Shown here one piece after another: positions 7,372-50,213 of a stretch of DNA of 64,000 bases. Numbering within the stretch: the stretch's first letter is position 1; each line of letters begins with the position of its first letter. The notes under the pieces were generated by a model. The model was given only the letters and a program-made list of their open reading frames with translations, had not been told where the DNA came from and made no database searches. This stretch comes from a virus, in the IMG/VR virus record IMGVR_UViG_3300045988_101454, positions 1 through 64,000 of that record, one strand, 5' to 3'. The translations under genes were made by a program, and so were the position numbers.

Positions 7372-7750
7372 GATAATCCCACGGCAAGCCGTGTGCCTAC
7401 CGTGGAAAATAGCGAAGACTTCTGGCTTGGGCGACCTTTAAATCTCCATCTCGCCGCCAGGCTTCTGACCGCCGCCACATTCAGTGGTGGAGCCGCCGGG
7501 CTTCACGCCACCCGTGAGGTCGTTGCTGGCAAGCATGACCTTGAGGTCGTCGGTGACGAGGGAACGCATATAACTGTTGCCCGACATCTCGAGTTTTCCG
7601 ATTGTAAAGGTACAAAAAAGGCGCGTGAAACATCGAAAATAGTAGGGAGTGAGGGCAACATCGGACGAAACTAACGGTTCGTGATATTCGTGTCATTGGA
7701 TGATGAAAATATAAATCTACGAAAGTATTAATGTATAAAAATATCAATGT

Positions 7751-8468: not shown

Positions 8469-8711
8469 TTAAATGCTTGCTCCAATTACCGCTCCCACAG
8501 CATCCGCAACTACGTCCTTCCAGTCAAACTCTTCTCCCGTAGCCACATCATACAGCTCCTTAAGCAGTCCTACACCCAGTGCAACAGCAGCCCCTATCAC
8601 CACACTGCCCGAGCATCGTTTCGCCACTACAGCAATGAGCGCACACGTCTCAACGTGCATCACCTTGTCCGTACCCACCTTGTCTACAATCTTTGTTACT
8701 AAATTCTCCAT
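8469..8711 (-). CDS. small membrane protein, holin candidate
   Basis: 80-aa ORF with hydrophobic segments, immediately downstream of the endolysin gene in the same operon. The function is assigned by position only. Confidence 0.5.
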   Translation of the reverse strand: MENLVTKIVDKVGTDKVMHVETCALIAVVAKRCSGSVVIGAAVALGVGLLKELYDVATGEEFDWKDVVADAVGAVIGASI

Positions 8712-8791
8712 AATTCAAAAAATGCAATTCACAATTCAAAAATCAATAACTCCTAATCGCCAAAGGCGACCAATTCCTAACTCCTAATTCG

Positions 8792-9220
8792 TCACTCCGC
8801 AAAGCGGCTTGCTTCCCACCGTCTGCGACTCTTCAGTCCTTCCAACGGTCTGCCACCTGCGTAAATCCACTTCAAGAACTCCGCCTGGATAGCAGCCACC
8901 GAAGCCTTCTTCTGAATCAGCTTAAAGAGCGTAGACCCCTTGAACGCACCCGTACCAAGGTTAAAGCAGAAATCCACACACGCATCAAAGCGTCCTTGCG
9001 ACTTACACACCTCCGGCACGGCAGACAAGAAGCTCTCAATCGGCGCAAGGTCAGCCCTCAGCCACTTCTCAGCCTTTGCCTTGTCGCACACCGTGCGAGC
9101 CGTCACACCCTTGGTATGCCCATACCCACACGTCCACACCCCAGCAGGGCATCGGTAAGCCTTAGCCCGATACCCCTCAAACTGCTTCAGTTTGTCAATC
9201 AATACGTCACTTGCTTTCAT
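8792..9220 (-). CDS. endolysin, glycoside hydrolase family 24 (phage lysozyme)
   Basis: FEGYRAKAYRCPAGVWTCGYGHT, then FCFNLGTGAFKGSTLFKL and LEGLKSRRRWE, match the GH24 lysozyme signature. Confidence 0.9.
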   Translation of the reverse strand: MKASDVLIDKLKQFEGYRAKAYRCPAGVWTCGYGHTKGVTARTVCDKAKAEKWLRADLAPIESFLSAVPEVCKSQGRFDACVDFCFNLGTGAFKGSTLFKLIQKKASVAAIQAEFLKWIYAGGRPLEGLKSRRRWEASRFAE

Positions 9221-9239
9221 AATTCAAAAATGCTTATTA

Positions 9240-9911
9240 CTAACTCCTAATAACTATCGCCCCTCGCTCCTCGTCGTAATCCACGCTAATTGCTTCGCAT
9301 CTCTCCGCTGCCTTGTTAGCTCTCTCCGTTGCCGTGTCCGCATCAGCCTTAGCCTTAACAGCGTTATCGGTAGCAGTATTAGCCTTAGCAGCAGCAGCGT
9401 CAGCCTTATCAGCCGAAGCGTTAGCCCTCTCCGTAGCCACATTCGCCTTCTCGATAGCCTCGTTTGCCCCCGTTATCAGGTTGCCAAGTTCTACGGTAGG
9501 AGGCAGCACCACAACAGCCGTGTCCATCTCCACGCTGTCCTCACCTTCTTGCGGTTCGAACACCGTATCACCCTGGGCATTGTTGTCAACAAGCATTATC
9601 TGTTCATACTCATTGCTTCGCCACGAGGAACCGAACAGCTTGCCCTTCACCTCAAGGGCATACGCGCCAAGAGCCATTTCCGAGCTTTGCACCCTCACCT
9701 CAAGCAGCGAGTCATCCTCCACGCCTATCGTATGCGCCATTCTTCTTCGGCGGAACGCATTAACAAGATTTACCTCCACCTCCTCGCAAGCAGGCAATGG
9801 AAACTTCTCCGCCTCTCCGCCCACAATCTTCCTTACCGGCACTCGCAACGTAAAATCGTTACCTCTTACTATCTTCTTCATAAAAGTCTGTTTTTTTAAT
9901 TCAAAACTCAA
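9240..9911 (-). CDS. tail-fibre-associated protein with Ala/Asn-rich coiled-coil segment
   Basis: 223-aa ORF; the start may instead be the ATG at 9881 (MKKIVRG). It has an ANEAIEKANVATERANASADKADAAAAKANTATDNAVKAKADADTATERANKAAE segment like the N-terminus of the DGR target. It ends GAIVIRS with a TAG-TAA tandem stop. Confidence 0.65.
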   Translation of the reverse strand: MSFELKKQTFMKKIVRGNDFTLRVPVRKIVGGEAEKFPLPACEEVEVNLVNAFRRRRMAHTIGVEDDSLLEVRVQSSEMALGAYALEVKGKLFGSSWRSNEYEQIMLVDNNAQGDTVFEPQEGEDSVEMDTAVVVLPPTVELGNLITGANEAIEKANVATERANASADKADAAAAKANTATDNAVKAKADADTATERANKAAERCEAISVDYDEERGAIVIRS

Positions 9912-26929: not shown

Positions 26930-27259
26930 TTACATTCCAAACTGTTTTTTCAAGAAACTATTTTTTTTGATAAGCCCTTCCATCTCCTGCTCCGAATGAT
27001 AGCCTTCCCAAAACAAATTGGTATGCGAACCTAAGCGATGGTCGTCAAGCGACGTTGGAATAGAATAGGCCGTATATATCAAATCGTAATGACGGACATA
27101 ACGAGTGCGCTTTTCTGGCTCGCTATACAGTTTATTTATCCAACCGTCGTTGTCACACTCACACCACTTGTTGTATTCGTCGTCTTTCAGATTTGCGTCA
27201 ATACCTATTGCTGTATGACCGCTACAGCCATTCGTTCCAAAATAAACAATCTTTGCCAT
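26930..27259 (-). CDS. hypothetical protein
   Basis: The tracked ORF 26930..27364 overlaps the methylase gene. The internal start MAKIVYFGTNGCSGH at 27259 removes the overlap. Confidence 0.5.
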   Translation of the reverse strand: MAKIVYFGTNGCSGHTAIGIDANLKDDEYNKWCECDNDGWINKLYSEPEKRTRYVRHYDLIYTAYSIPTSLDDHRLGSHTNLFWEGYHSEQEMEGLIKKNSFLKKQFGM

Positions 27260-33422: not shown

Positions 33423-33454
33423 TGTTTTGTTGTTTTATAAATTTGTTATTTGTT

Positions 33455-34630
33455 TTACTTAGCCTTAAAATTATATATCGGCTTGATGCGCTTCACGATG
33501 TTCACAGTGTCGCCTATCAGTTCTTCAATCTCCTCTGCCGACTTGTACGCCATTGGTGCTTCGTCGATGGTGGACTCGCATACCGATGTGGAGTAGATGT
33601 CGTGCATCTGTTGGCGGTATTCTTCCATGCTGAGCTGCTTCTTTGCTGCCGAGCGCGACATCAGTCTGCCTGCACCGTGCGGAGCCGACTGAAGCCAGTC
33701 GTCGTTGCCCTTGCCAGTACACAGCAGCGAACCGTCGCGCATGTTCAGAGGGATAATCAGAGGCTCGCCCTTCTTTGCGCTCACAGCTCCCTTGCGGATA
33801 ATGCCGAAGGTGTCGATGTAGTTGTGCATGGTGGTGAACACACGACCTGTAGACTTTAGTTCAAGACCTTTGATTATGGTTTGCGCCATAAGAAAACGGT
33901 TCAAGTCGGCATAATGCTGACACAAGCGCATGGCATCATAGTAATCGCCAAGCGTGGGACCGCTAATGTAGGCCATGTCTTTAGAAACGGGTTTCAACCG
34001 GCGCAGCGCATCGTTTATCTCGCTCTGTCTGCCCTGAGCTTTCAGTTCGGAAATGATACGTCCACGTTCCTCACTGTTGTTGCATTGTCTTGATGCCAAC
34101 TGCTGAAAATGTCGGCATATCTTTACGCCTAAATTGCGGCTACCCGAATGTACTACAAGATACTTGCGTCCTTCGTCGTCCACGTCCACCTCAATAAAGT
34201 GGTTGCCACCGCCAAGGGTGCCGAGCGAACGCAGTACATAGTCGAGGTCAAAATATTGCTTCCACGGAGGCAAAAAACACCATATTTCATTGTGCATAAG
34301 GGAAACCATCTCTGACGACAAACGCTTCTCATGCACATTGAATCCGCTTGGAATGTTGTCGTTGATGATACGGTCGAGAATCTCCATATCAATGTTGGCA
34401 AAGCCTAAATCCCACACGAGCATACCACAGCCGATGTCTACGCCCATGGTGTTGGGCACCACTTTGCCGCGGGTCTCAATCACGGTGCCTACGGTGCATC
34501 CCTTTCCGGCATGGCAATCGGGCATAATGCGAATCTTACAGTTGCGGTAAGCCTCGCTCTCTGCCATCTGCCTTACTTGCTCCTGGGCTTCAGGTTCAAT
34601 GGTCTTTGCAAAAATCTTTAAGTCACTCAT
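33455..34630 (-). CDS. rtcB: RtcB-family RNA 3'-phosphate ligase
   Basis: Characteristic RtcB metal and GTP ligand motifs are present: MPDCHAGKGCTVG, GVDIGCGM, GGGNHFIEV, VHSGSRNLG and APHGAGR. Confidence 0.9.
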   Translation of the reverse strand: MSDLKIFAKTIEPEAQEQVRQMAESEAYRNCKIRIMPDCHAGKGCTVGTVIETRGKVVPNTMGVDIGCGMLVWDLGFANIDMEILDRIINDNIPSGFNVHEKRLSSEMVSLMHNEIWCFLPPWKQYFDLDYVLRSLGTLGGGNHFIEVDVDDEGRKYLVVHSGSRNLGVKICRHFQQLASRQCNNSEERGRIISELKAQGRQSEINDALRRLKPVSKDMAYISGPTLGDYYDAMRLCQHYADLNRFLMAQTIIKGLELKSTGRVFTTMHNYIDTFGIIRKGAVSAKKGEPLIIPLNMRDGSLLCTGKGNDDWLQSAPHGAGRLMSRSAAKKQLSMEEYRQQMHDIYSTSVCESTIDEAPMAYKSAEEIEELIGDTVNIVKRIKPIYNFKAK

Positions 34631-34823
34631 TGTTCGTTGTTACTCTATAAATCCGTTAATAAAAAGAAATGTGCAGTGGTTGAGTTTTCCTTCTCCTCGC
34701 TCGTCTGCACCAAAGCCCGTTAATTACGTTTTACGGAGTGGTGACATGCGACACACTGAGTACGGTCCCTTGGCCTTCGGGATGAGTCTCTTTTATTGAA
34801 ACGCCTTTCTGCGGTTGCGTACC

Positions 34824-35195
34824 TTACAGCCGTTTGAGCAGCGTGCTGCATTTATGGCCTGATGCCTTTTCTTCGTAACCCAACCTTTCGTACCAATGCA
34901 ACACCCATGGAGGAGAATCGCGTCCGTCCCACGAGATTGCGACGGTCTCTACGCCGCAATACTTCAGCTCTTTTTCTACTGCCTCCATCAGTTTTTTTGC
35001 CACCTCACGGCCGCGGTGAGCTTCGTCAACCCACAGCGAGTAGATGAGAGCATCCGCTGCGCCATCCAAAGGTTTGTCTTCGGAATGATTAGGAATGAAC
35101 GCTTGTATGCTGCCATGATGCTGCTCGTCGGTGACGAGTATGCGAATAGAGTCTTCCCAATGTTGATGTTGTATCATAGTTGAAATGTTACGCAA
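34824..35195 (-). CDS. GNAT family N-acetyltransferase
   Basis: LWVDEAHRGREVAKKLMEAVEKELKYCGVETV...WYERLGYEE matches the acetyl-CoA-binding motif A (R/Q-x-x-G-x-A/G) and the following beta strands. Confidence 0.8.
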   Translation of the reverse strand: MRNISTMIQHQHWEDSIRILVTDEQHHGSIQAFIPNHSEDKPLDGAADALIYSLWVDEAHRGREVAKKLMEAVEKELKYCGVETVAISWDGRDSPPWVLHWYERLGYEEKASGHKCSTLLKRL

Positions 35196-35230
35196 TTTTG
35201 TTTAGTCAGTCGACTGTCTGTATGCTTGTG

Positions 35231-35238
35231 CAAAGGTA
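35231..35238 (-). promoter_or_regulatory. -7 promoter box (TACCTTTG)
   Basis: 35 nt upstream of the GNAT ATG at 35195. Confidence 0.45.
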
Positions 35239-35249
35239 GATTATCCCTT

Positions 35250-35618
35250 TTACTCGATACGGACATTCTCCTCGAAGTCGTATCTCACGTCTCGGCTTTG
35301 CGAAAAAGCCACAGGCGTTTGGGAGAAGATGTCTGCCTCACAGTCGGCAACGGCTCGCACGAACGCCTCGTACATCTTCTGTTCGTCATATTCTTCCAGA
35401 AAGCCCTGGCTTGTCTGCTGCCATAGCAGATCAGGGCGTTTGCCGTCCTTCTTGTTTCCTTTAACAATCAGCATGACACTTACGGAGTTTTCACCCTCGC
35501 GCACATCCGCACGAAGTATGCCGTAGCCAAGCGGTTTGCCAAAAGTGTAGCAACCACGATGATTCCCAAGAAAGCGGTAGCCGTAGTTTCGCAATGCCTT
35601 TATCACAAATTTTCTCAT
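35250..35618 (-). CDS. hypothetical protein
   Basis: The tracked ORF starts at a TTG (35624). The first ATG is at 35618 (MRKFVIKAL). Confidence 0.55.
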   Translation of the reverse strand: MRKFVIKALRNYGYRFLGNHRGCYTFGKPLGYGILRADVREGENSVSVMLIVKGNKKDGKRPDLLWQQTSQGFLEEYDEQKMYEAFVRAVADCEADIFSQTPVAFSQSRDVRYDFEENVRIE

Positions 35619-35630
35619 ATTCAATTTTTT

Positions 35631-35800
35631 TTATAGTTCTACTAATACTTTTATCTCTGTATGCCCCCCTCCTGCGTATGCAGCGTGGGCGATATTCCTT
35701 TAGCGGAATACACGCGGCGGTTCTGCTCAAATATACGGTCGTAGGGTGGTGTCTGCATCATGCCGACTACGAGGGTGTGTGCGGTGTCAGTCATCGACAT
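35631..35800 (-). CDS. C5-methyltransferase TRD-like mini-ORF (dispersed copy J), -1 shift at G6
   Basis: MSMTDTAHTLVVGMMQTPPYDRIFEQNRRVYSAKGISPTLHTQEGG is followed by a G6 tract (plus-strand C6 at 35664-35669). The family-typical tail HTEIKVLVEL* is in the -1 frame. The frame as sequenced stops at 35651. The ATG overlaps the end of the upstream ORF. Confidence 0.45.
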
Positions 35801-36485
35801 CGATAAATCGGACCTTTGCTTCTGCAAACTTTTTCTCGCAAATAACACCAAGACCTTCAATGATGCCCAGGCATGATTTACATTCCAGACAGAATGTGGA
35901 GCATACATGAGGACCATCTTGATAGTACGGGCAGTTCGCCCCCTTTGCCATATAGAGTTTCTTGTCCTTCACAAAGGAATGAATTGCCTTTGCAAAACGC
36001 TCCAATTCCTTGTTCATCATTTCCACCGTGTCGCAATGATAGCGCAACTGGTTCATGTCGAAAGAAGTCTGCTTTGGCGTTTTTTCGTCATGCTGCTTCT
36101 CCGTTTCGTTCAACTGGCGTACCACGTCGTTGTAGTCGTCCATGAGCTGATGCACGCGCTGCTCAAGCTCCACGTTCTCTGCCTTCAAATCGGCGATGAT
36201 GTAGGCAAGCACCTCCATTCGGTTGTTCTTAGGTAGGTCTATATACTCGCATACAGCCAGATGTCTTTCCATATACTTGCGTTGCTCGTCAGTAGCGGGG
36301 TCGTAGGCATCGGCTGTTCGTGTGCCTACGCGATAGGGTGGAGGTGGGGTCTGAAAAATTCTTCGCATATCGGTAATTGCCGAATACTTCACCACTCCAT
36401 CTTCGTCTACTCGCGCTACCTTTACCAACATCTTTCGCTCTTTGTCGTAAAGGATGTCGCCAGGGGTGATTTCTTCTGTTTTCAT
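35787..36485 (-). CDS. hypothetical coiled-coil protein with Cys-rich C-terminus
   Basis: 232-aa ORF with the leader AAACAATAGAGACAATG. Confidence 0.6.
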   Translation of the reverse strand: MKTEEITPGDILYDKERKMLVKVARVDEDGVVKYSAITDMRRIFQTPPPPYRVGTRTADAYDPATDEQRKYMERHLAVCEYIDLPKNNRMEVLAYIIADLKAENVELEQRVHQLMDDYNDVVRQLNETEKQHDEKTPKQTSFDMNQLRYHCDTVEMMNKELERFAKAIHSFVKDKKLYMAKGANCPYYQDGPHVCSTFCLECKSCLGIIEGLGVICEKKFAEAKVRFIDVDD

Positions 36486-36509
36486 TGTCTCTATTGTTTT
36501 TATTACATA

Positions 36510-37073
36510 TTATACAACAGCGAAATTATTGTCTTGCTGCTTCCGTTTTTGTCCTTCCTTGCAAACTATCTTGCCTCTGTCCTTCAGTCGGAGGCAGAAA
36601 TATTCACAATTCCAACACGCACAGCTATCCACTCTTACTGTTTCGAAATTTTCTTTGCAGAATGGGTCTCCAGTCTCCACCATATCGTGAGGACATTCTG
36701 TGTTTTTTACGAGAGCGAACCCTTTTTCCTCAAGCAGGTCGATAAGGGTGCTGCGCTCTCTCTTTAAGTTCACGTTCTCGCTTCGCAAGTTGGCAAGCGC
36801 GTTTCTGAGGTTGTCAGTCTCACGTCCTTGCGCTATGTTAGCGTTGCAGACGTTGGTGTAACCCTTATACAATTCCTTGAGATTGGCCTCCGTATTTTCC
36901 AGTTCCGCCACCACATCCTCATGCTTGTTTTCCAGATTGCGGAGATTCTTTACTACTCTTTTATAGCCTCTGGAAAAACGACGTATTTTTAGTTTCATAG
37001 CCTCGTTTTCGGCTACCAACTCTCCATAACGCCTCGCATCTGCAACACGCTTTTTCCATTCCTGATGTTTCAT
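36510..37073 (-). CDS. hypothetical coiled-coil protein with Cys-rich C-terminus
   Basis: 187-aa ORF with the same leader motif as 35787..36485. Confidence 0.6.
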   Translation of the reverse strand: MKHQEWKKRVADARRYGELVAENEAMKLKIRRFSRGYKRVVKNLRNLENKHEDVVAELENTEANLKELYKGYTNVCNANIAQGRETDNLRNALANLRSENVNLKRERSTLIDLLEEKGFALVKNTECPHDMVETGDPFCKENFETVRVDSCACWNCEYFCLRLKDRGKIVCKEGQKRKQQDNNFAVV

Positions 37074-37096
37074 TGTCTCTATTGTTTATGTTTTTT

Positions 37097-37264
37097 TTAA
37101 TTATACAACATACTCATTAATGCCGCAGCCCTTCTCTTGTCGGTAAATCCTTTGATGTTTACCCACTTGCCGAAGATGCAGTCTCCGACTCTTTTCTGAA
37201 CCATCCAGACGGTCACGGGTATGCAACCGTTGTAGGCATCCATCGGAACAATTCTTAGTTTCAT
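37097..37264 (-). CDS. small hypothetical protein (55 aa)
   Basis: Hand-translated as MKLRIVPMDAYNGCIPVTVWMVQKRVGDCIFGKWVNIKGFTDKRRAAALMSMLYN*. It fills the gap between two genes and is below the track's size cutoff. Confidence 0.4.
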   Translation of the reverse strand: MKLRIVPMDAYNGCIPVTVWMVQKRVGDCIFGKWVNIKGFTDKRRAAALMSMLYN

Positions 37265-37267
37265 ATC

Positions 37268-37447
37268 TTATTCAAATTTATATACTATATGCGGTGTGGT
37301 GTTGCCCAGTCCGTCGCGAGGGTCGGCAAAGCAGCCAGGCGGTGAGGTTGTCACGGCATTGGCTATCTGCTTGCGCGGTCGGCTCTTTACGAGGCCCTTA
37401 CCGTCCTTGCCGCTGCGTACCCATCCGATGTAATACTTATCAGTCAT
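37268..37447 (-). CDS. C5-methyltransferase TRD-like mini-ORF (dispersed copy K)
   Basis: Hand-translated as MTDKYYIGWVRSGKDGKGLVKSRPRKQIANAVTTSPPGCFADPRDGLGNTTPHIVYKFE*. It has an ATGA overlap with the stop of 37444..38250. Confidence 0.45.
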   Translation of the reverse strand: MTDKYYIGWVRSGKDGKGLVKSRPRKQIANAVTTSPPGCFADPRDGLGNTTPHIVYKFE

Positions 37448-38250
37448 CGGTCTGCGTTTTGCCCTGTCCCCAATCGTTCAATAGACTGGCATAATATCCC
37501 TTGTATTCTACCTGCCTCTTGCTCTGCCCTCTTTAGAGCTTCGTCACGCTCATGCTCCAGCTTTATGCAATATTCAGTCAAGCGATTGTATTCTTTCTGC
37601 AAGGCATTGAAATCCTCGCGCAGCTGCTCCAAATTGGGGTTTTCAGAATCCAATAACACAAGACGTTGCTTTTCCTTGTCCCATCTTTTCCCGATTTTCT
37701 CCACGGAATTGTTGAGAAGTTTTTCTTCCGTAGGCGTAGCGTATCTCAGTTCGATGCTTTTTTCTTCTTCGCGTGTACCGCGAAGGTCAAGCTGAGCGTT
37801 AAAAGTAAGCACGTCGCTGTTTTTGCATAAGCAGGCGTATGTCCTTATCTTGGGATAATCAGTAGATTCCACTCCGCTGAAAATCACAATGTAGGTCAGA
37901 ATGTTGCCATCTTCATACTTAATATCCATTGCCACGATGTCACCCGGCTGGAATTTGAGCACATTCCAACTTCGGTAAAGATGCGAGAGAAACAGCATAC
38001 ACTCTCCTTTGTCAAAACGCGCTATACGCCCGTTGTAAAGAAAAAAATGGTCGTATGCTTCATTCTCGTCAGGATGATGGAGGCCCAGCACAACACCCGA
38101 GGCGTTGAAATTATGCACCTCCATATAACCTAACAGAGGCGAATAAAGCATAGCGTCTACAGGCAAACTGTGGAGAAAAGCTGATAGTTTCTCATTCTCG
38201 AAAGTTTTTGCTCCCGTTTTAGGGATGCTTCTTGTTTCTTTTTGACTCAT
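37444..38250 (-). CDS. hypothetical protein
   Basis: 268-aa ORF. Confidence 0.6.
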   Translation of the reverse strand: MSQKETRSIPKTGAKTFENEKLSAFLHSLPVDAMLYSPLLGYMEVHNFNASGVVLGLHHPDENEAYDHFFLYNGRIARFDKGECMLFLSHLYRSWNVLKFQPGDIVAMDIKYEDGNILTYIVIFSGVESTDYPKIRTYACLCKNSDVLTFNAQLDLRGTREEEKSIELRYATPTEEKLLNNSVEKIGKRWDKEKQRLVLLDSENPNLEQLREDFNALQKEYNRLTEYCIKLEHERDEALKRAEQEAGRIQGILCQSIERLGTGQNADR

Positions 38251-38270
38251 AATGTCTCTATTTTAAATTG

Positions 38271-38422
38271 TTATTCATATTCTATCAATACAATGGTGTG
38301 CTGTCCGTGTTCATCGTAGAGCCCTGCCCATCCGTCGTAGCGGGCGGACAATGCCGTGGAATACCCCCCCGACGTGGGCAGAGCTGGGATGTGCGTTGTA
38401 CGAAAGGGATTTGTTTAATCAT
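38271..38422 (-). CDS. TRD-like mini-ORF I, -1 shift at G7
   Basis: MIKQIPFVQRTSQLCPRRGG is followed by a G7 tract (C7 at 38364-38370). The conserved tail YSTALSARYDGWAGLYDEHGQHTIVLIEYE* is in the -1 frame. The frame as sequenced stops at 38285. Confidence 0.45.
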
Positions 38423-38590
38423 ACGTTATCAATACCATATTGTCTTTGCCTACTGATGTGAGGGTGTTGGTTGTCCCCCCCCCCCGTTTATCTCCATTCG
38501 CTGAAAGAAGCGTCCGTTGGAGGGATGCTTGCGGTTGGACGGATTATCGGGGGCACGGCCTCGGAAGGCTGCTATGCGAAAGTCAATCAT
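38415..38590 (-). CDS. TRD-like mini-ORF H, -1 shift at G11
   Basis: MIDFRIAAFRGRAPDNPSNRKHPSNGRFFQRMEINGGGG is followed by a G11 tract (C11 at 38475-38485). The -1 frame continues TTNTLTSVGKDNMVLITYD*. The frame as sequenced stops at 38450. Confidence 0.5.
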
Positions 38591-38876
38591 CCCCATTCCA
38601 TTTTTCATCATCCACAGTTCGTGCTATGAATATGCGATATGGGTTCTTCTTGTCTGTACTGGTTAGCTCTATTGCTTTTTCGATACTCTCCCTCGATACA
38701 AAGTCGCGTATCATCAACACTGCAAGGGCATCGAACTCGTCGTCCGACAAACAAACAGTATCTTCTCCTCGGCGGATAGTAACAAAGTCGCAAATAGTGT
38801 TGTGCCCGAAAGCCACATCAACATCTTCATTACGTTCGAGGTCTCTGACTATTATTTTTTCTGCGTAAAGACTCAT
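38583..38876 (-). CDS. hypothetical protein embedded in the mini-ORF array
   Basis: 97-aa tracked ORF with no obvious TRD-like motif. Its stop overlaps the start of the next module (ATGATTGA). Confidence 0.55.
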   Translation of the reverse strand: MSLYAEKIIVRDLERNEDVDVAFGHNTICDFVTIRRGEDTVCLSDDEFDALAVLMIRDFVSRESIEKAIELTSTDKKNPYRIFIARTVDDEKWNGDD

Positions 38877-38903: not shown

Positions 38904-39080
38904 TTAATCGTAACATATTGCAATCAGATTGTCAGTGGTGAGGGAAGTACCTATACATTGCATCCAACATCCTTGTCGCAGATGCCATTCCTTATCACGG
39001 AAGTCGTTAGTGCCGATTAAGCGACGCACGGCTTTCGCGTGTTCGGTTCTGGCTTCGTGTATCAGATGAATGTTAAGCAT
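38904..39080 (-). CDS. TRD-like mini-ORF G
   Basis: MLNIHLIHEARTEHAKAVRRLIGTNDFRDKEWHLRQGCWMQCIGTSLTTDNLIAICYD*. This uses an internal ATG of the tracked ORF 38904..39128. Confidence 0.45.
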   Translation of the reverse strand: MLNIHLIHEARTEHAKAVRRLIGTNDFRDKEWHLRQGCWMQCIGTSLTTDNLIAICYD

Positions 39081-39244
39081 AATAGGTTGTCTTTTGTTAC
39101 AGTTGTTATCGAATTGCTCCACGGCCACGGACTGGGGCGGTGATACTTTTCGCCGTATTTACACCCTCCGCGGTCGCCATGCTCACGACGGAAGGCTTTG
39201 GCTTCCTCGGTGCGGTAGTGGACGAGGACGGAACGGTCAATCAT
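39062..39244 (-). CDS. TRD-like mini-ORF F
   Basis: Tracked 60-aa ORF MIDRSVLVHYRTEEAKAFRREHGDRGGCKYGEKYHRPSPWPWSNSITTVTKDNLLCLTFI*. Confidence 0.5.
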   Translation of the reverse strand: MIDRSVLVHYRTEEAKAFRREHGDRGGCKYGEKYHRPSPWPWSNSITTVTKDNLLCLTFI

Positions 39245-39386
39245 ACTCTATCAATATTTTCGGTTTATCCACGTCGTGACCCTTACCTCCCCCGGCTATG
39301 CACAAGGCTATGCCGTGTGGTGACACGATGATGCCGTTCTGCGAGGGGCTGTAGGAGCCAAGGATGATGGGGCGAGGGTTGTTCAT
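39237..39386 (-). CDS. TRD-like mini-ORF E (intact)
   Basis: MNNPRPIILGSYSPSQNGIIVSPHGIALCIAGGGKGHDVDKPKILIEYD*. It has ATGA and ATGATTGA overlaps at its two ends. Confidence 0.5.
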   Translation of the reverse strand: MNNPRPIILGSYSPSQNGIIVSPHGIALCIAGGGKGHDVDKPKILIEYD

Positions 39387-39550
39387 AATTCTACTGCTAC
39401 ATAATAGTGGTTACGACTGCTCACTCCAGCTTGAATGGTGTAGATGATACCCCTCCCGAATTGCTTGTTCTAGGTGTCTATCCATACGGCATGAGAGGGG
39501 CGGAAACCACGTTTGTACATTATTTCTAAGCGAGCGTTCTTGTTAAGCAT
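39383..39550 (-). CDS. TRD-like mini-ORF D with an in-frame TAG
   Basis: MLNKNARLEIMYKRGFRPSHAVWIDT, then TAG (39470-39472), then NKQFGRGIIYTIQAGVSSRNHYYVAVEL*. Confidence 0.35.
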
Positions 39551-39679
39551 ATTCAATCAGTACCCCTCCAGTTTTGTTGACAAGGTTAGGGTGGGGTATA
39601 TTCCTTTAGTACCGCAGATGTTGCCATCAAAACCGGACTTCCACTTGTCGTAATAAATGTTGCCAATCTTTTCAATCAT
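39543..39679 (-). CDS. TRD-like mini-ORF C, -1 shift at G4
   Basis: MIEKIGNIYYDKWKSGFDGNICGTKGIYPTLTLSTKLEG is followed by a G4 tract (39563-39566), with VLIEYA* in the -1 frame. The frame as sequenced stops at 39557. Confidence 0.4.
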
Positions 39680-39827
39680 ATTCTACTATTACTGCCGTTG
39701 CTGCCCTGCCTCCCGTTGGCTTAATGAAATTCACCAAAGAATTGCGTTGGTACTGCGACTTAACGCATCGACATAACGCGGGAGAGGTAGAGACACTATC
39801 AGGGTTTAATGCTTTTATAAAAACCAT
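39672..39827 (-). CDS. TRD-like mini-ORF B
   Basis: MVFIKALNPDSVSTSPALCRCVKSQYQRNSLVNFIKPTGGRAATAVIVEYD*. Its start overlaps the previous stop (TAATG). Confidence 0.45.
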   Translation of the reverse strand: MVFIKALNPDSVSTSPALCRCVKSQYQRNSLVNFIKPTGGRAATAVIVEYD

Positions 39828-40453
39828 TATTCAAACTCATACAATACTACTGCCATTGGGTAATGGGCGAGCGTGAGGATGTTGGTAGGTCCGATAGCCT
39901 CGTAGCGTGTGGTTATGGTTGCCGCACAACATCCGTCAGTAACATTCACCATCAGTCCGCTACCCCATTCAGACGGAATGGAGGTGCGACGTGGGTCAGC
40001 TTACACTCCATCCTTCTTCCTCTCCATATTTTCTTTGAACAATTCCTCAAATCCCTCGAATGGGAACGTGTGGTAATTGCAGAACGATTTCCAATAGCTA
40101 TCAAACACGAGTCGCATACCCTCTATACTATCCGCCAATTCGTCAAGCTCCATATCCCATCCGTTGATGGTGTTTATGAGGTTTTGTAGCCACGTCTTGA
40201 GGAACATTGCCGCCTCGTGTGTCGGTGGCAGGTCGAACTGAAGGAATAGGGCGTTGTCAGAGTCGTTGGTCGTGAGGAACTTGCTCACGGCATCGTCCTT
40301 GAGGAAATAGCGGCCGGACACTTCCTCTTCGAGCACGTCTTCCAGTCGGGTAAGTAGCTCGAAGGGTTCGGGAAACTGGTAGTCGAAGGCCACGTCACGG
40401 CGCATGGAGAGGCAGAACACCCTGTCGCGGTTTTGTGGCACGCCGTAGTTCTA
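39827..40453 (-). pseudogene. 5'-truncated C5-cytosine DNA methyltransferase remnant (motif VIII onward)
   Basis: ...THYND-TAG(40451-40453)-NYGVPQNRDRVFCLSMRRDVAFDYQFPEPFELLTRLEDVLEEEV matches the C5 methyltransferase motif VIII (QxRxR) and the following segment. Motifs I-VI are absent because ORF 40514..41149 abuts it. There is an in-frame TAA at 40001-40003, followed by ...GCCAATITTRYEAIGPTNILTLAHYPMAVVLYEFE*. Confidence 0.6.
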
Positions 40454-40513
40454 GTCGTTGTAGTGGGTTTGTGGGGAGTCTTGGTTTTGTTAAAGTTCAT
40501 GGGGGTTGGTGTT

Positions 40514-41149
40514 TTATCGTCTTACTTCCAGCCATGTGTTACAGCGACCGATCCCAAACTTTGCAGCCACCGCACAAAAACTCTTGTCGTGATGACCAGA
40601 CCGACAAGTCCCTAAGTCAGCACAGGTATCACAGCCGAAATCCATATAATCTGGATGATACCATACCTTGTCGCCAATCTCACGGATATAGCCTCTCTTT
40701 GTATCTACCACCAAGGTTCTTCCGACGGAATTTCTTTTGGGTTTATTCACAACAACCTTATACCGATTGTTTTTCTTCCTTACGACATGACATTCATTAC
40801 GCATCGACCATCTCGGGTCAAAAACACGGAAGTCAATGCGCCACTTTTTGGGAAAATGGAACTTCTTCGGGTCGCAATAGTTGGAAAGTACTTTGCGGTC
40901 AGTAGAAACAATCTCTTCCCAGTTGTCACAACAACGAAGTACGTCAACCCTCCATCCTATGCGACGCTGTACTATATCTAACAGCGATGGATAATTACGC
41001 GGCTTCTCCCAGATTCCTCTAAAGTAAAGATTGTATCTGTCAAGCAGCACCTTGTTTCTTGCTTTCATAGTCTTTATAAATTCTTTTATATTGTTAATGT
41101 TTTCGCATTGAGCTGAAATCTTTGTTTCACCAATATGCTCTTTGAGCAA
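40514..41149 (-). CDS. hypothetical protein with Cys/His-rich C-terminus
   Basis: 211-aa ORF ending CDTCADLGTCRSGHHDKSFCAVAAKFGIGRCNTW. It occupies the place where the methyltransferase 5' half would be. Confidence 0.6.
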   Translation of the reverse strand: MLKEHIGETKISAQCENINNIKEFIKTMKARNKVLLDRYNLYFRGIWEKPRNYPSLLDIVQRRIGWRVDVLRCCDNWEEIVSTDRKVLSNYCDPKKFHFPKKWRIDFRVFDPRWSMRNECHVVRKKNNRYKVVVNKPKRNSVGRTLVVDTKRGYIREIGDKVWYHPDYMDFGCDTCADLGTCRSGHHDKSFCAVAAKFGIGRCNTWLEVRR

Positions 41150-41351: not shown

Positions 41352-41819
41352 CTATTCATCTTTGAGGTTCAACTTCTCTTGCCATTCTGGGTCGTGTATA
41401 TCACCGACAATCTCAAAGTCCTCAAGTTTCTGTTGCGTGATTCCGTCAGAGATGCCATCAGAGATGCCACGCACAGCGGATTTCGGGTTTTTGACACAGG
41501 TGAGAAAAAACATCGCCTCTTCATCACTCCACCCTATAATGCCAAAGTAATTGTCACGCGCACCATCCTCCATGCGACTGAATGGGTATTCGTCCGAGCG
41601 AAGAAGATCGCCCTCATAAATCTCCTTACCGTTCTTGTCGAGGTAGCCGGTGAACTGGCAGACGGTGCGAGGGTCAACCTTGTAGGGGATGTTTCTATTC
41701 AACATACTTTCCTTTTGCCTATCCTCGATAATGTATGTGTTATCATTCTCCTCGTAGAAGTAACCACAAGTCCATTCTTTATTATCAAGGCGTTTAGCCT
41801 TAAACTTGATTGTTCTCAT
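41352..41819 (-). CDS. YopX family phage protein
   Basis: IKFKAKRLDNKEW...VDPRTVCQFTGYLDKNGKEIYEGDLL is the typical YopX N-terminal pattern. Confidence 0.8.
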   Translation of the reverse strand: MRTIKFKAKRLDNKEWTCGYFYEENDNTYIIEDRQKESMLNRNIPYKVDPRTVCQFTGYLDKNGKEIYEGDLLRSDEYPFSRMEDGARDNYFGIIGWSDEEAMFFLTCVKNPKSAVRGISDGISDGITQQKLEDFEIVGDIHDPEWQEKLNLKDE

Positions 41820-49649: not shown

Positions 49650-50213
49650 TTACTCTTTTTTTGAAGCGAGAAGCGAGTCCCAACCGCCAGTTTCAGGCTC
49701 TGCAATCTCATAGCGTCCGTATGCTGTGGGCTGGAGAGTTCCGCTACAAACAACGCTACGTTCATCGTCAGATTTTTTGCCCGTGTCGCCCTTAATGCCA
49801 CCGGAAGCGTACTCTACCTTATGCTGAGAATCGTACACGATGATGCTCTTTTCACCATCCTGGAAGATGTAGCCAAGGTCGAGGTTGTTCAGAGCACGCG
49901 CCACTTCTGCCGACTCTGCATTTACGCTTTCGAGTACATAGTCAATCTGCTGTTTATAACCGCCTCTTCTACCAAGTGACTCAAAAGAGTGTCCCTGGCT
50001 ACTCTCCTTACACTCGAATTTGTAAAGACCCTTACCAGTGTTGAACGACTCAGAGGTCAATGCAGGGTAGATGTTCTTTTCGGCCTTCAAGGGAGCTTTA
50101 AGGTCAGCCTTATTGAAGACGTAGACATTGACACCAAGACCGCCAAAATTCTCTAAGCATTCATTAGCTGCGAGGACGTCCTTAATCTCAGGACATATTG
50201 CTGTTACTGCCAT
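49650..50213 (-). CDS. virion structural protein candidate (tail-tube-like or head accessory), possible -1 frameshift extension to 49528
   Basis: 187-aa ORF directly after the capsid gene. It ends TCA AAA AAA GAG TAA, and the -1 frame stays open for 42 more codons. Confidence 0.6.
   Translation of the reverse strand: MAVTAICPEIKDVLAANECLENFGGLGVNVYVFNKADLKAPLKAEKNIYPALTSESFNTGKGLYKFECKESSQGHSFESLGRRGGYKQQIDYVLESVNAESAEVARALNNLDLGYIFQDGEKSIIVYDSQHKVEYASGGIKGDTGKKSDDERSVVCSGTLQPTAYGRYEIAEPETGGWDSLLASKKE

Follow-up and report, generated by a model that had tools for sequence, protein, structure and literature searches.

The first 64,000 nucleotides of the IMG/VR virus record IMGVR_UViG_3300045988_101454 (referred to throughout, as a whole stretch, as the window) carry 11 stand-alone genes of 45-65 amino acids (aa), designated here modules A to K. 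Five of these (A, C, H, I and J) are one G short of an open frame, D is interrupted by a nonsense codon, and B, E, F, G and K are intact. We regard it as probable that the modules are stand-alone genes for the target-recognition domains (TRDs) of a split phage C5-cytosine methyltransferase (C5-MTase), that their G tracts are slipped-strand contingency switches, and that the copies in the window are dead remnants. Slipped-strand variation in the length of the G tracts is well supported in its own right. The tracts are length-polymorphic in DNA, near-identical genomes included, and loss of frame follows tract length.

Tract length and reading frame of the mini-genes

Nearly all genes of the window, the modules among them, lie on the minus strand. 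A preliminary description had noted four tracts, and these are found where it placed them, reading on the plus strand as C11 (38475-38485), C7 (38364-38370), C6 (35664-35669) and C4 (39563-39566), and on the coding strand as G-runs within open reading frames (ORFs) of 40-65 codons. Its observation that modules H, I, J and C each carry a conserved tail displaced by a single G is confirmed, and our minus-strand translations agree with those given there. Module H (38415-38611, with orthologues starting MIDFR or MLHFR at about 38590) holds the G11; its zero frame ends in EINGGGGQPTPSHQ and a stop, and its shifted frame reads TTNTLTSVGKDNMVLITYD up to the stop. The spacer of H measures 11 nucleotides (nt), and a length of 9 or 12 would restore the frame. 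Module I (38271-38422) holds the G7, with in-frame lengths of G5 or G8, and its shifted frame reads YSTALSARYDGWAGLYDEHGQHTIVLIEYE before the stop; this module is encoded in a single frame and intact in most of about 80 related loci. In module J (35631-35794) the G6 lies in a Gly-rich loop (TQ(E)GGG) and the shifted frame gives HTEIKVLVEL. Module C (39543-39679) gives VLIEYA in its shifted frame, and its spacer is 15 nt in the window versus 13 or 16 nt when in frame. The position reported for the G4 of module C is correct, but the run is not a plain homopolymer, being interrupted (GGAGGGG). The repair common to the four modules is the addition of one nucleotide (or the loss of two), and with one G added the tails read VLITYD, VLIEYE, KVLVEL and VLIEYA, each followed by a stop. 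Module E, whose run is interrupted (GGGGGAGG), is intact as had been claimed. A fifth frameshifted member, module A (39827-40011), was absent from the preliminary description. It is one G short at a C4 on the plus strand (39963-39966), the tract being G4 in the window versus G5 in six relatives, and the final codons of the upstream methyltransferase core gene overlap its ATG (MECKLTHVAPPFRLNGG).

A comparison of tract lengths in related genomes had been proposed at that stage, and it reveals lengths from G4 to G11, with in-frame (ON) and out-of-frame (OFF) states and both offsets. The position of the run is fixed within the orthologues of each module. Its length in module H is G6, G7, G8 (in frame), G9 or G11, or the run is interrupted (GTTGGAGGT); it ranges over G4-G9 in I, G6-G11 in J and G6-G8 in D. 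In relatives, module C is in frame with G5 or G8 and out of frame with G6, and module A occurs with G4, G5, G6, G8 and G10, of which G5 (the six relatives above) and G8 are in frame and G6 and G10 are out. Over five module families, runs of at most 5 nt are in frame in 89 cases and out of frame in two; of the runs of at least 6 nt, 15 are in frame and 25 out, with offsets of +1 and +2 both present. The G7 of module I recurs in six distinct sequence contexts. A second and cruder census, based on the tail motif, covered 58 non-redundant genomes with an intact core gene. Modules with runs of at least G6 were intact 42 times and broken 69 times in these genomes, and 42 of the 58 contained at least one such broken module.

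Length differences are also seen between very close relatives (contigs are given L numbers where they need to be told apart). Across 20.4 kb, L055 and L056 share 99.97% identity and differ by three indel events, two of them TRD G tracts; the J tract is G7, G8 and G9 in L055, L056 and L070, respectively, with identical flanks. L093, which matches the window at 98-99.9% identity in the region of modules F-J, has G8T in H (in frame), G6 in I (out) and G7 in J (in frame), where the window has G11, G7 and G6. A further contig, L094 (ENA ERZ27229712 k119_13864), is a separate assembly record with 100% identity to window positions 33444-38481. It carries the G7 and G6 exactly as in the window and ends inside the C11 (at window position 38481), as would be expected if reads disagree there, which is a mere hint of switching within the population. 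The modules thus display length differences together with ON and OFF states in close relatives, as contingency loci do; an uninterrupted repeat sets the frame in H, I and J, and the resemblance is weak for A and C, with their G4 runs.

The tracts are over-represented in these genes relative to the rest of the genome. The window contains five G/C runs of at least 6 nt, three of which cluster in roughly 2 kb of module sequence, and the two longest are both in mini-genes. The other two, each a C6 (6223-6228 and 59254-59259), lie outside long ORFs. Among 51 loci, the 6 kb surrounding the core gene contain 123 of the 157 G/C runs of at least 7 nt, and over 7-14 kb the coding strand holds 107 such runs of G versus 17 of C. 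GGG is the rarest glycine codon in the 43 long minus-strand ORFs of the window (50/924, 5.4%), and none of the 60 Gly-Gly pairs in its long ORFs begins with GGG. Two other homopolymers, a T8 at 26961-26968 and a run at 49656-49662, had been put forward as controls in the preliminary description. Both do leave their frames unbroken, but their value as controls is weak, the first lying in an ORF of just 109 aa and the second within the final few codons of its ORF. The view they were meant to support, that a blanket homopolymer artefact is not obvious, is borne out by 74 G/C runs of 4-5 nt that are in frame within 43 intact ORFs of at least 150 aa; the G4 cases therefore do not reflect a general undercall. 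Six A/T runs of at least 7 nt are likewise in frame within intact ORFs of at least 100 aa.

Homology to target-recognition domains and a permuted methyltransferase core

Homology to TRDs was tested with family profiles for modules H and J, and the remaining modules were placed by motif and tail similarity. The H profile aligned with residues 356-402 of the Dulem virus 39 C5-MTase, which belong to its variable region (hhalign 98.5%, E = 1.8e-15), and the J profile with residues 300-328 of SPbeta MtbP, just before motif IX (hhalign 95.6%, E = 1.3e-8). By tblastn, J also matched C5-MTase genes of phi3T/H2/rho11s phages. At the level of sequence, these comparisons show the H and J module families to be homologous to C5-MTase TRDs. 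In an ordinary enzyme, the tail of J (LVEL, compared with LIEYD elsewhere) would therefore sit immediately ahead of motif IX. In relatives, each module ends in (V/I)LIEY(D/E) and a stop. Every TRD in the window has its own ATG and stop, so the arrangement is not that of a single-chain multispecific enzyme with tandem TRDs between motifs VIII and IX. Homologues of J form 271 clusters of stand-alone proteins of 53-63 aa, annotated as ‘hypothetical protein’. Pfam and PDB sequence searches with single modules as queries gave no matches, because the peptides are too short and family profiles are needed. Megablast of the window against GenBank phages returned no near match, and ten window proteins had almost no matches in PHROGs.

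The modules are real genes under purifying selection. Among orthologues, five modules have a ratio of nonsynonymous to synonymous polymorphism (pN/pS) of 0.12-0.27, and module B has a ratio of 0.44 (n = 4). Modules E, F and G have values of 0.12-0.22 across relatives, and each is 96.7-100% identical over its full length to its closest orthologue.

More than 100 related phage contigs of about 90-100 kb have TRD mini-genes flanking a circularly permuted core, a protein of about 438 aa with roughly 7-14 TRD-like mini-genes (45-65 aa) around it. The motifs of this core, read mainly from the sequences of L011-L013, come in the order IX (IRKLTPKEC), X (QAGNSIV), I (FSGYDSQ), IV (SSPCQDIS), VI (QENV) and VIII (QNRDRVF); the core is therefore a circularly permuted C5-MTase, and the permuted order was found in L011-L013 and in the core protein P0001. 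In searches of the PDB, core residues 192-359 aligned to M.MpeI 115-285, and residues 15-50 aligned weakly to M.MpeI 333-368 (independent E-value 87). Homologues of the core made up 7915 of the 8000 scored candidates, with lengths of 434-464 aa among the best 120 listed. No TRD-like motifs were present in the four homologue sequences that were read, and an extension of about 90 aa without TRD motifs follows motif VIII. The core appears to lack a TRD. An AlphaFold2 model of P0001 from an 18-sequence alignment was poor (mean predicted local distance difference test score 49.7, predicted template modelling score 0.35), and its sole confident part was the last approximately 70 residues, which are helical.

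In some relatives the core gene is itself frameshifted at poly-C tracts: in L014 at 9460-9490, in L010 at 7590-7605 (the same in L051 and L059), and in L075 at 9195-9210. One of these is a C8 in a linker and the others are C7 tracts inside motif IX (RKLTPP). Such tracts may act as master switches. L076 and L079 carry about 1 kb of inserted sequence in the core gene at codon ~212 (~8686-9760), which could be an intron or a homing-endonuclease insertion.

The preliminary description missed that the modules are methyltransferase TRDs and that the catalytic core is deleted in this genome. Only the 3' part of the core gene, codons 281-438, is left in the window (40001-40477, minus strand), with motif VIII (QNRDRVF) and the C-terminal extension. 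The ORF at 40001-40441 matches Pfam PF00145 around motif VIII (E = 6.4e-7), and a tblastn search with the core as query covered the window only at query positions 281-438. Compared with L013, about 2.36 kb has been lost at a junction at 40461-40519 (minus strand), which fuses the gene at 40514-41149 to core codon ~281 and removes the upstream TRD genes together with the first 280 codons of the core, which encode motifs IX, X, I, IV and VI. The 64 kb contain no second core gene and no copy of motif I, IV or X, and neither PCQ nor ENV occurs anywhere in them in a suitable context. No exact copy of the junction turned up in IMG/VR, and no record was found of the truncated product of 146 aa. L093 (Logan SRR31841354_63) has an independent and larger core deletion at 2100-2550 that leaves only codons ~325-438, so core loss recurs in this lineage. 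Because the core is deleted, five modules are one G short and D carries a nonsense codon, we read the modules of the window as relics, most likely non-functional remnants caught in OFF states.

Module D (39383-39550) has an in-frame TAG at 39470-39472, which is a Tyr codon in the same frame of L011; in other relatives D is broken at its G6-G8 tracts. The core remnant also contains an in-frame TAG, ahead of NYGVPQNR, at a position where L011 has Lys. Reassignment of this stop codon was considered because of these two in-frame TAGs, and was rejected: L011 has different residues, Tyr and Lys, at the two sites, there is no suppressor tRNA, and the long ORFs are all intact under genetic code 11.

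The intact modules E (39237-39386), F (39062-39244) and G (38904-39080) have overlapping stop and start codons, and in several modules of the window the stop overlaps the next start (TATGA). Module B (39672-39827) is also intact, as is K (37268-37447), a TRD-like mini-gene (ANAVTTSPPG, with the tail NTTPHIVYKFE) assigned by motif and tail similarity only. An element of about 24 nt (coding strand TTGATAGAATATGA) is repeated at the junctions at 38268-38291, 38412-38435, 39234-39257, 39540-39563 and 39669-39692. It encodes the LIEY(D/E) tail and stop plus the ATG of the following module, which suggests coupled translation along the array. Two other arrangements were considered and set aside. Silent recombination cassettes or a shufflon would not account for junctions that share only this element, at 75-83% identity explained by its coding sequence (LIEYD, stop and ATG), and there are no long identical or inverted repeats. 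As to a read-through fusion from the core into module A, in most relatives A lies in another frame and has its own ATG overlapping the end of the core gene.

Among the neighbouring genes (33455-34630, 34824-35195 and 41352-41819) are those for an RtcB-type RNA ligase, a GNAT acetyltransferase and a YopX-domain protein, and the region looks like an accessory, counter-defence-type gene neighbourhood.

Proposed mechanism and alternative explanations

Runs of simple repeats gain and lose bases through slipped-strand mispairing during replication. In many lineages the codons of a G-rich stretch in the TRD genes have turned into a pure G-run, and we propose that, as such runs gain and lose bases, individual TRD genes flip in and out of frame. 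The TRD peptides are predicted to dock on the core in trans, giving the enzyme several specificities. The tracts would then be contingency switches that diversify the methylation pattern of the phage, and switching, which we infer for these modules from sequence comparison, would be predicted to be adaptive as a hedge against the restriction of DNA in its unmethylated as well as its methylated state.

The preliminary description had listed four candidate mechanisms without choosing among them. Slipped-strand variation is the one that has held up, and the remaining three are weighed here along with plain decay. Were the real tracts G12, G8, G7, G5 and G5, the frameshifts of the window would be an artefact of G/C homopolymers undercalled by the sequencing platform or assembler. 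A single added G does repair all five, a G11 is long enough to attract errors, L094 stops within this very tract, and no intact long ORF of the window contains a G/C run of at least 6 nt to serve as an internal control. The 74 shorter runs in frame nevertheless speak against it, as does the base-for-base agreement of the G7 and G6 in L094. Relatives show changes of both signs plus 2-nt changes, with module I having its G7 in six contexts, and since the L055 and L056 assemblies differ by just three indel events, the assemblies are accurate. Blanket undercalling of G/C is unlikely, although the G11 may have been miscounted; that all five frameshifts are artefactual seems to us very unlikely. Nor do we find much to recommend programmed recoding, by which full-length modules would be made from out-of-frame DNA through -1 ribosomal frameshifting or insertion of G by RNA polymerase. 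Most relatives encode each module in one frame with interrupted Gly codons, and OFF relatives need +1 nt or +2 nt, case by case; there is therefore no conserved recoding geometry to set beside the conserved tails in the -1 frame of all the window cases. The 80 nt downstream of the tracts hold no unusual structure (z-scores 0.11, -0.44, 0.46 and 1.38), and the G4 runs of A and C cannot support slippage. An out-of-frame slippery site is thus not conserved among the relatives, the tracts have no stimulatory RNA structure downstream, and programmed -1 frameshifting is not supported. Transcriptional slippage is plausible at a G11 run and may occur there, but nothing requires it. Recoding as a whole is, in our judgement, extremely improbable.

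Under plain decay the small genes would be in the course of being lost, the G-runs would be no more than hot spots of mutation in them, and the frameshifts would be ordinary pseudogenising mutations, without a switching role either here or generally. The window itself fits such an account, with core codons 1-280 absent, a nonsense codon in D and frameshifts in A and C at short G4 runs, and so do the independent deletion in L093 and a nonsense codon in J of L046. Moreover, the proportion of long tracts found out of frame, about 62%, is near the neutral two-thirds. Decay does not, however, predict the purifying selection on modules across relatives (pN/pS 0.12-0.27), or that the OFF alleles of 42 out of 58 intact-core genomes should stand beside 42 in-frame modules with runs of at least G6. 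It is in these very genes that pure G tracts are strongly enriched, although GGG is the rarest glycine codon in the long ORFs of the window and GGG-GGN is unused elsewhere, and alleles with G8 and G10 in frame exist. For these reasons we consider decay without switching unlikely.

Several points weigh against our preferred reading of the modules as switchable TRD genes. When M.MpeI/M.SssI was split into a permuted large domain and an isolated TRD, the result was inactive (PMC5944983). The five shifts of the window share one direction, which a systematic undercall would also give, and the share of long tracts that are OFF is what neutral length drift would give. Without a core, the OFF states form no working switch in this window. 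The frameshifts of A and C occur at mere G4 runs and resemble ordinary fixed deletions; in the five-family comparison just one further allele with a run of at most 5 nt is OFF (module I of L014), and it comes from a genome whose core is frameshifted, which fits decay. All tract lengths, finally, derive from consensus assemblies.

Relation to known systems and significance

The J and H modules are homologous to TRDs of the multispecific C5-MTases of Bacillus phages (SPR, phi3T, rho11s, H2 and SPbeta MtbP) and of Dulem virus 39, enzymes in which several interchangeable TRDs serve several targets. The N-terminus of the split core also closely resembles the Dulem virus 39 enzyme in its motifs IX and X. 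In these enzymes the TRDs stand in tandem in one polypeptide between motifs VIII and IX, whereas here they are separate genes of 45-65 aa and the core seemingly has no TRD. To our knowledge, no poly-G switches are known in the multispecific enzymes. Contig L095 is Dulem virus 39 itself (PP511791.1, 29453-31036) and encodes a canonical single-chain C5-MTase of 527 aa with several TRD-like segments. An enzyme of this type is, judged from its motifs, a plausible ancestor type of the split core.

Two-chain C5-MTases, of which M.EcoHK31I is one, consist of two halves that each contain conserved motifs; here, by contrast, a TRD-only peptide would complement a complete catalytic domain, and many alternative partners would be available. 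In M.AquI (alpha/beta) and in engineered fragment complementation, the split lies in the variable region and separately encoded polypeptides reassemble (PMC5944983). The natural permuted C5-MTases M.BssHII, M.Alw26I, M2.Eco31I, M.Esp3I and M2.BsaI have motifs IX-X before I-VIII, with the permutation site in the variable region (PMC5944983). They share the IX-X-first order with the phage core, but keep their TRD in the same chain, whereas the phage core ends in the extension of about 90 aa without TRD motifs.

Bacteria are well known to vary in phase through slippery repeats; in phages the phenomenon was recognised only lately. In bacterial phasevarions (Type III mod, Type I hsdS/hsdM) a repeat in a methyltransferase or specificity gene likewise toggles by slippage. 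Those systems are cellular, mostly N6-adenine specific and have one or few switches, whereas the present one is of phage origin and C5 specific, and would put separate switches on as many as a dozen modules and in some cases on the core as well. Phage contingency loci, such as the A-runs of T2/T4 (including the glucosyltransferase gene agt), the receptor-binding poly-G tracts of Campylobacter Fletchervirus and the methylase poly-G tract of a Bordetella phage, also have hypermutable homopolymers and yield mixed progeny. They are single genes, and none comprises several specificity modules of one enzyme that switch separately; for the modules described here, switching is inferred from comparative data only. 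Toggling of T2 agt permits escape from modification-dependent versus modification-sensitive defences, and provides a precedent for a phage DNA-modification gene toggled through a homopolymer (bioRxiv 10.1101/2025.10.21.683753). The phenomenon as a whole is akin to phase-variable methyltransferases, to multispecific phage methyltransferases and to permuted or split C5-MTases.

Going further, we suggest only tentatively, as a possibility that falls somewhat short of being probable, that a TRD-less permuted core takes its specificity in trans from as many as a dozen peptides of 45-65 aa, most of them switched by poly-G and the core sometimes by poly-C. The progeny of a burst would then bear varied combinations of methylated motifs, amounting to a combinatorial phase-variable methylome. 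No description of this architecture was found in the searchable literature, and such a modular C5-MTase in very common gut phages of about 100 kb appears to be undescribed.

For this genome the message is more modest, in that the core has been lost and the broken modules are remnants. The mini-genes carry no Pfam domain and are called ‘hypothetical protein’ where they are named at all (shown for the J family), and annotation pipelines are likely to ‘correct’ or discard frameshifts of this kind. If the proposed system is real, it would be a natural version of the engineered design that failed (PMC5944983) and could yield programmable cytosine methyltransferases. About ten independently switchable methylation specificities would then represent a new way of countering the numerous restriction systems found in gut Bacteroidales, and part of strain-level host range could be explained by them.

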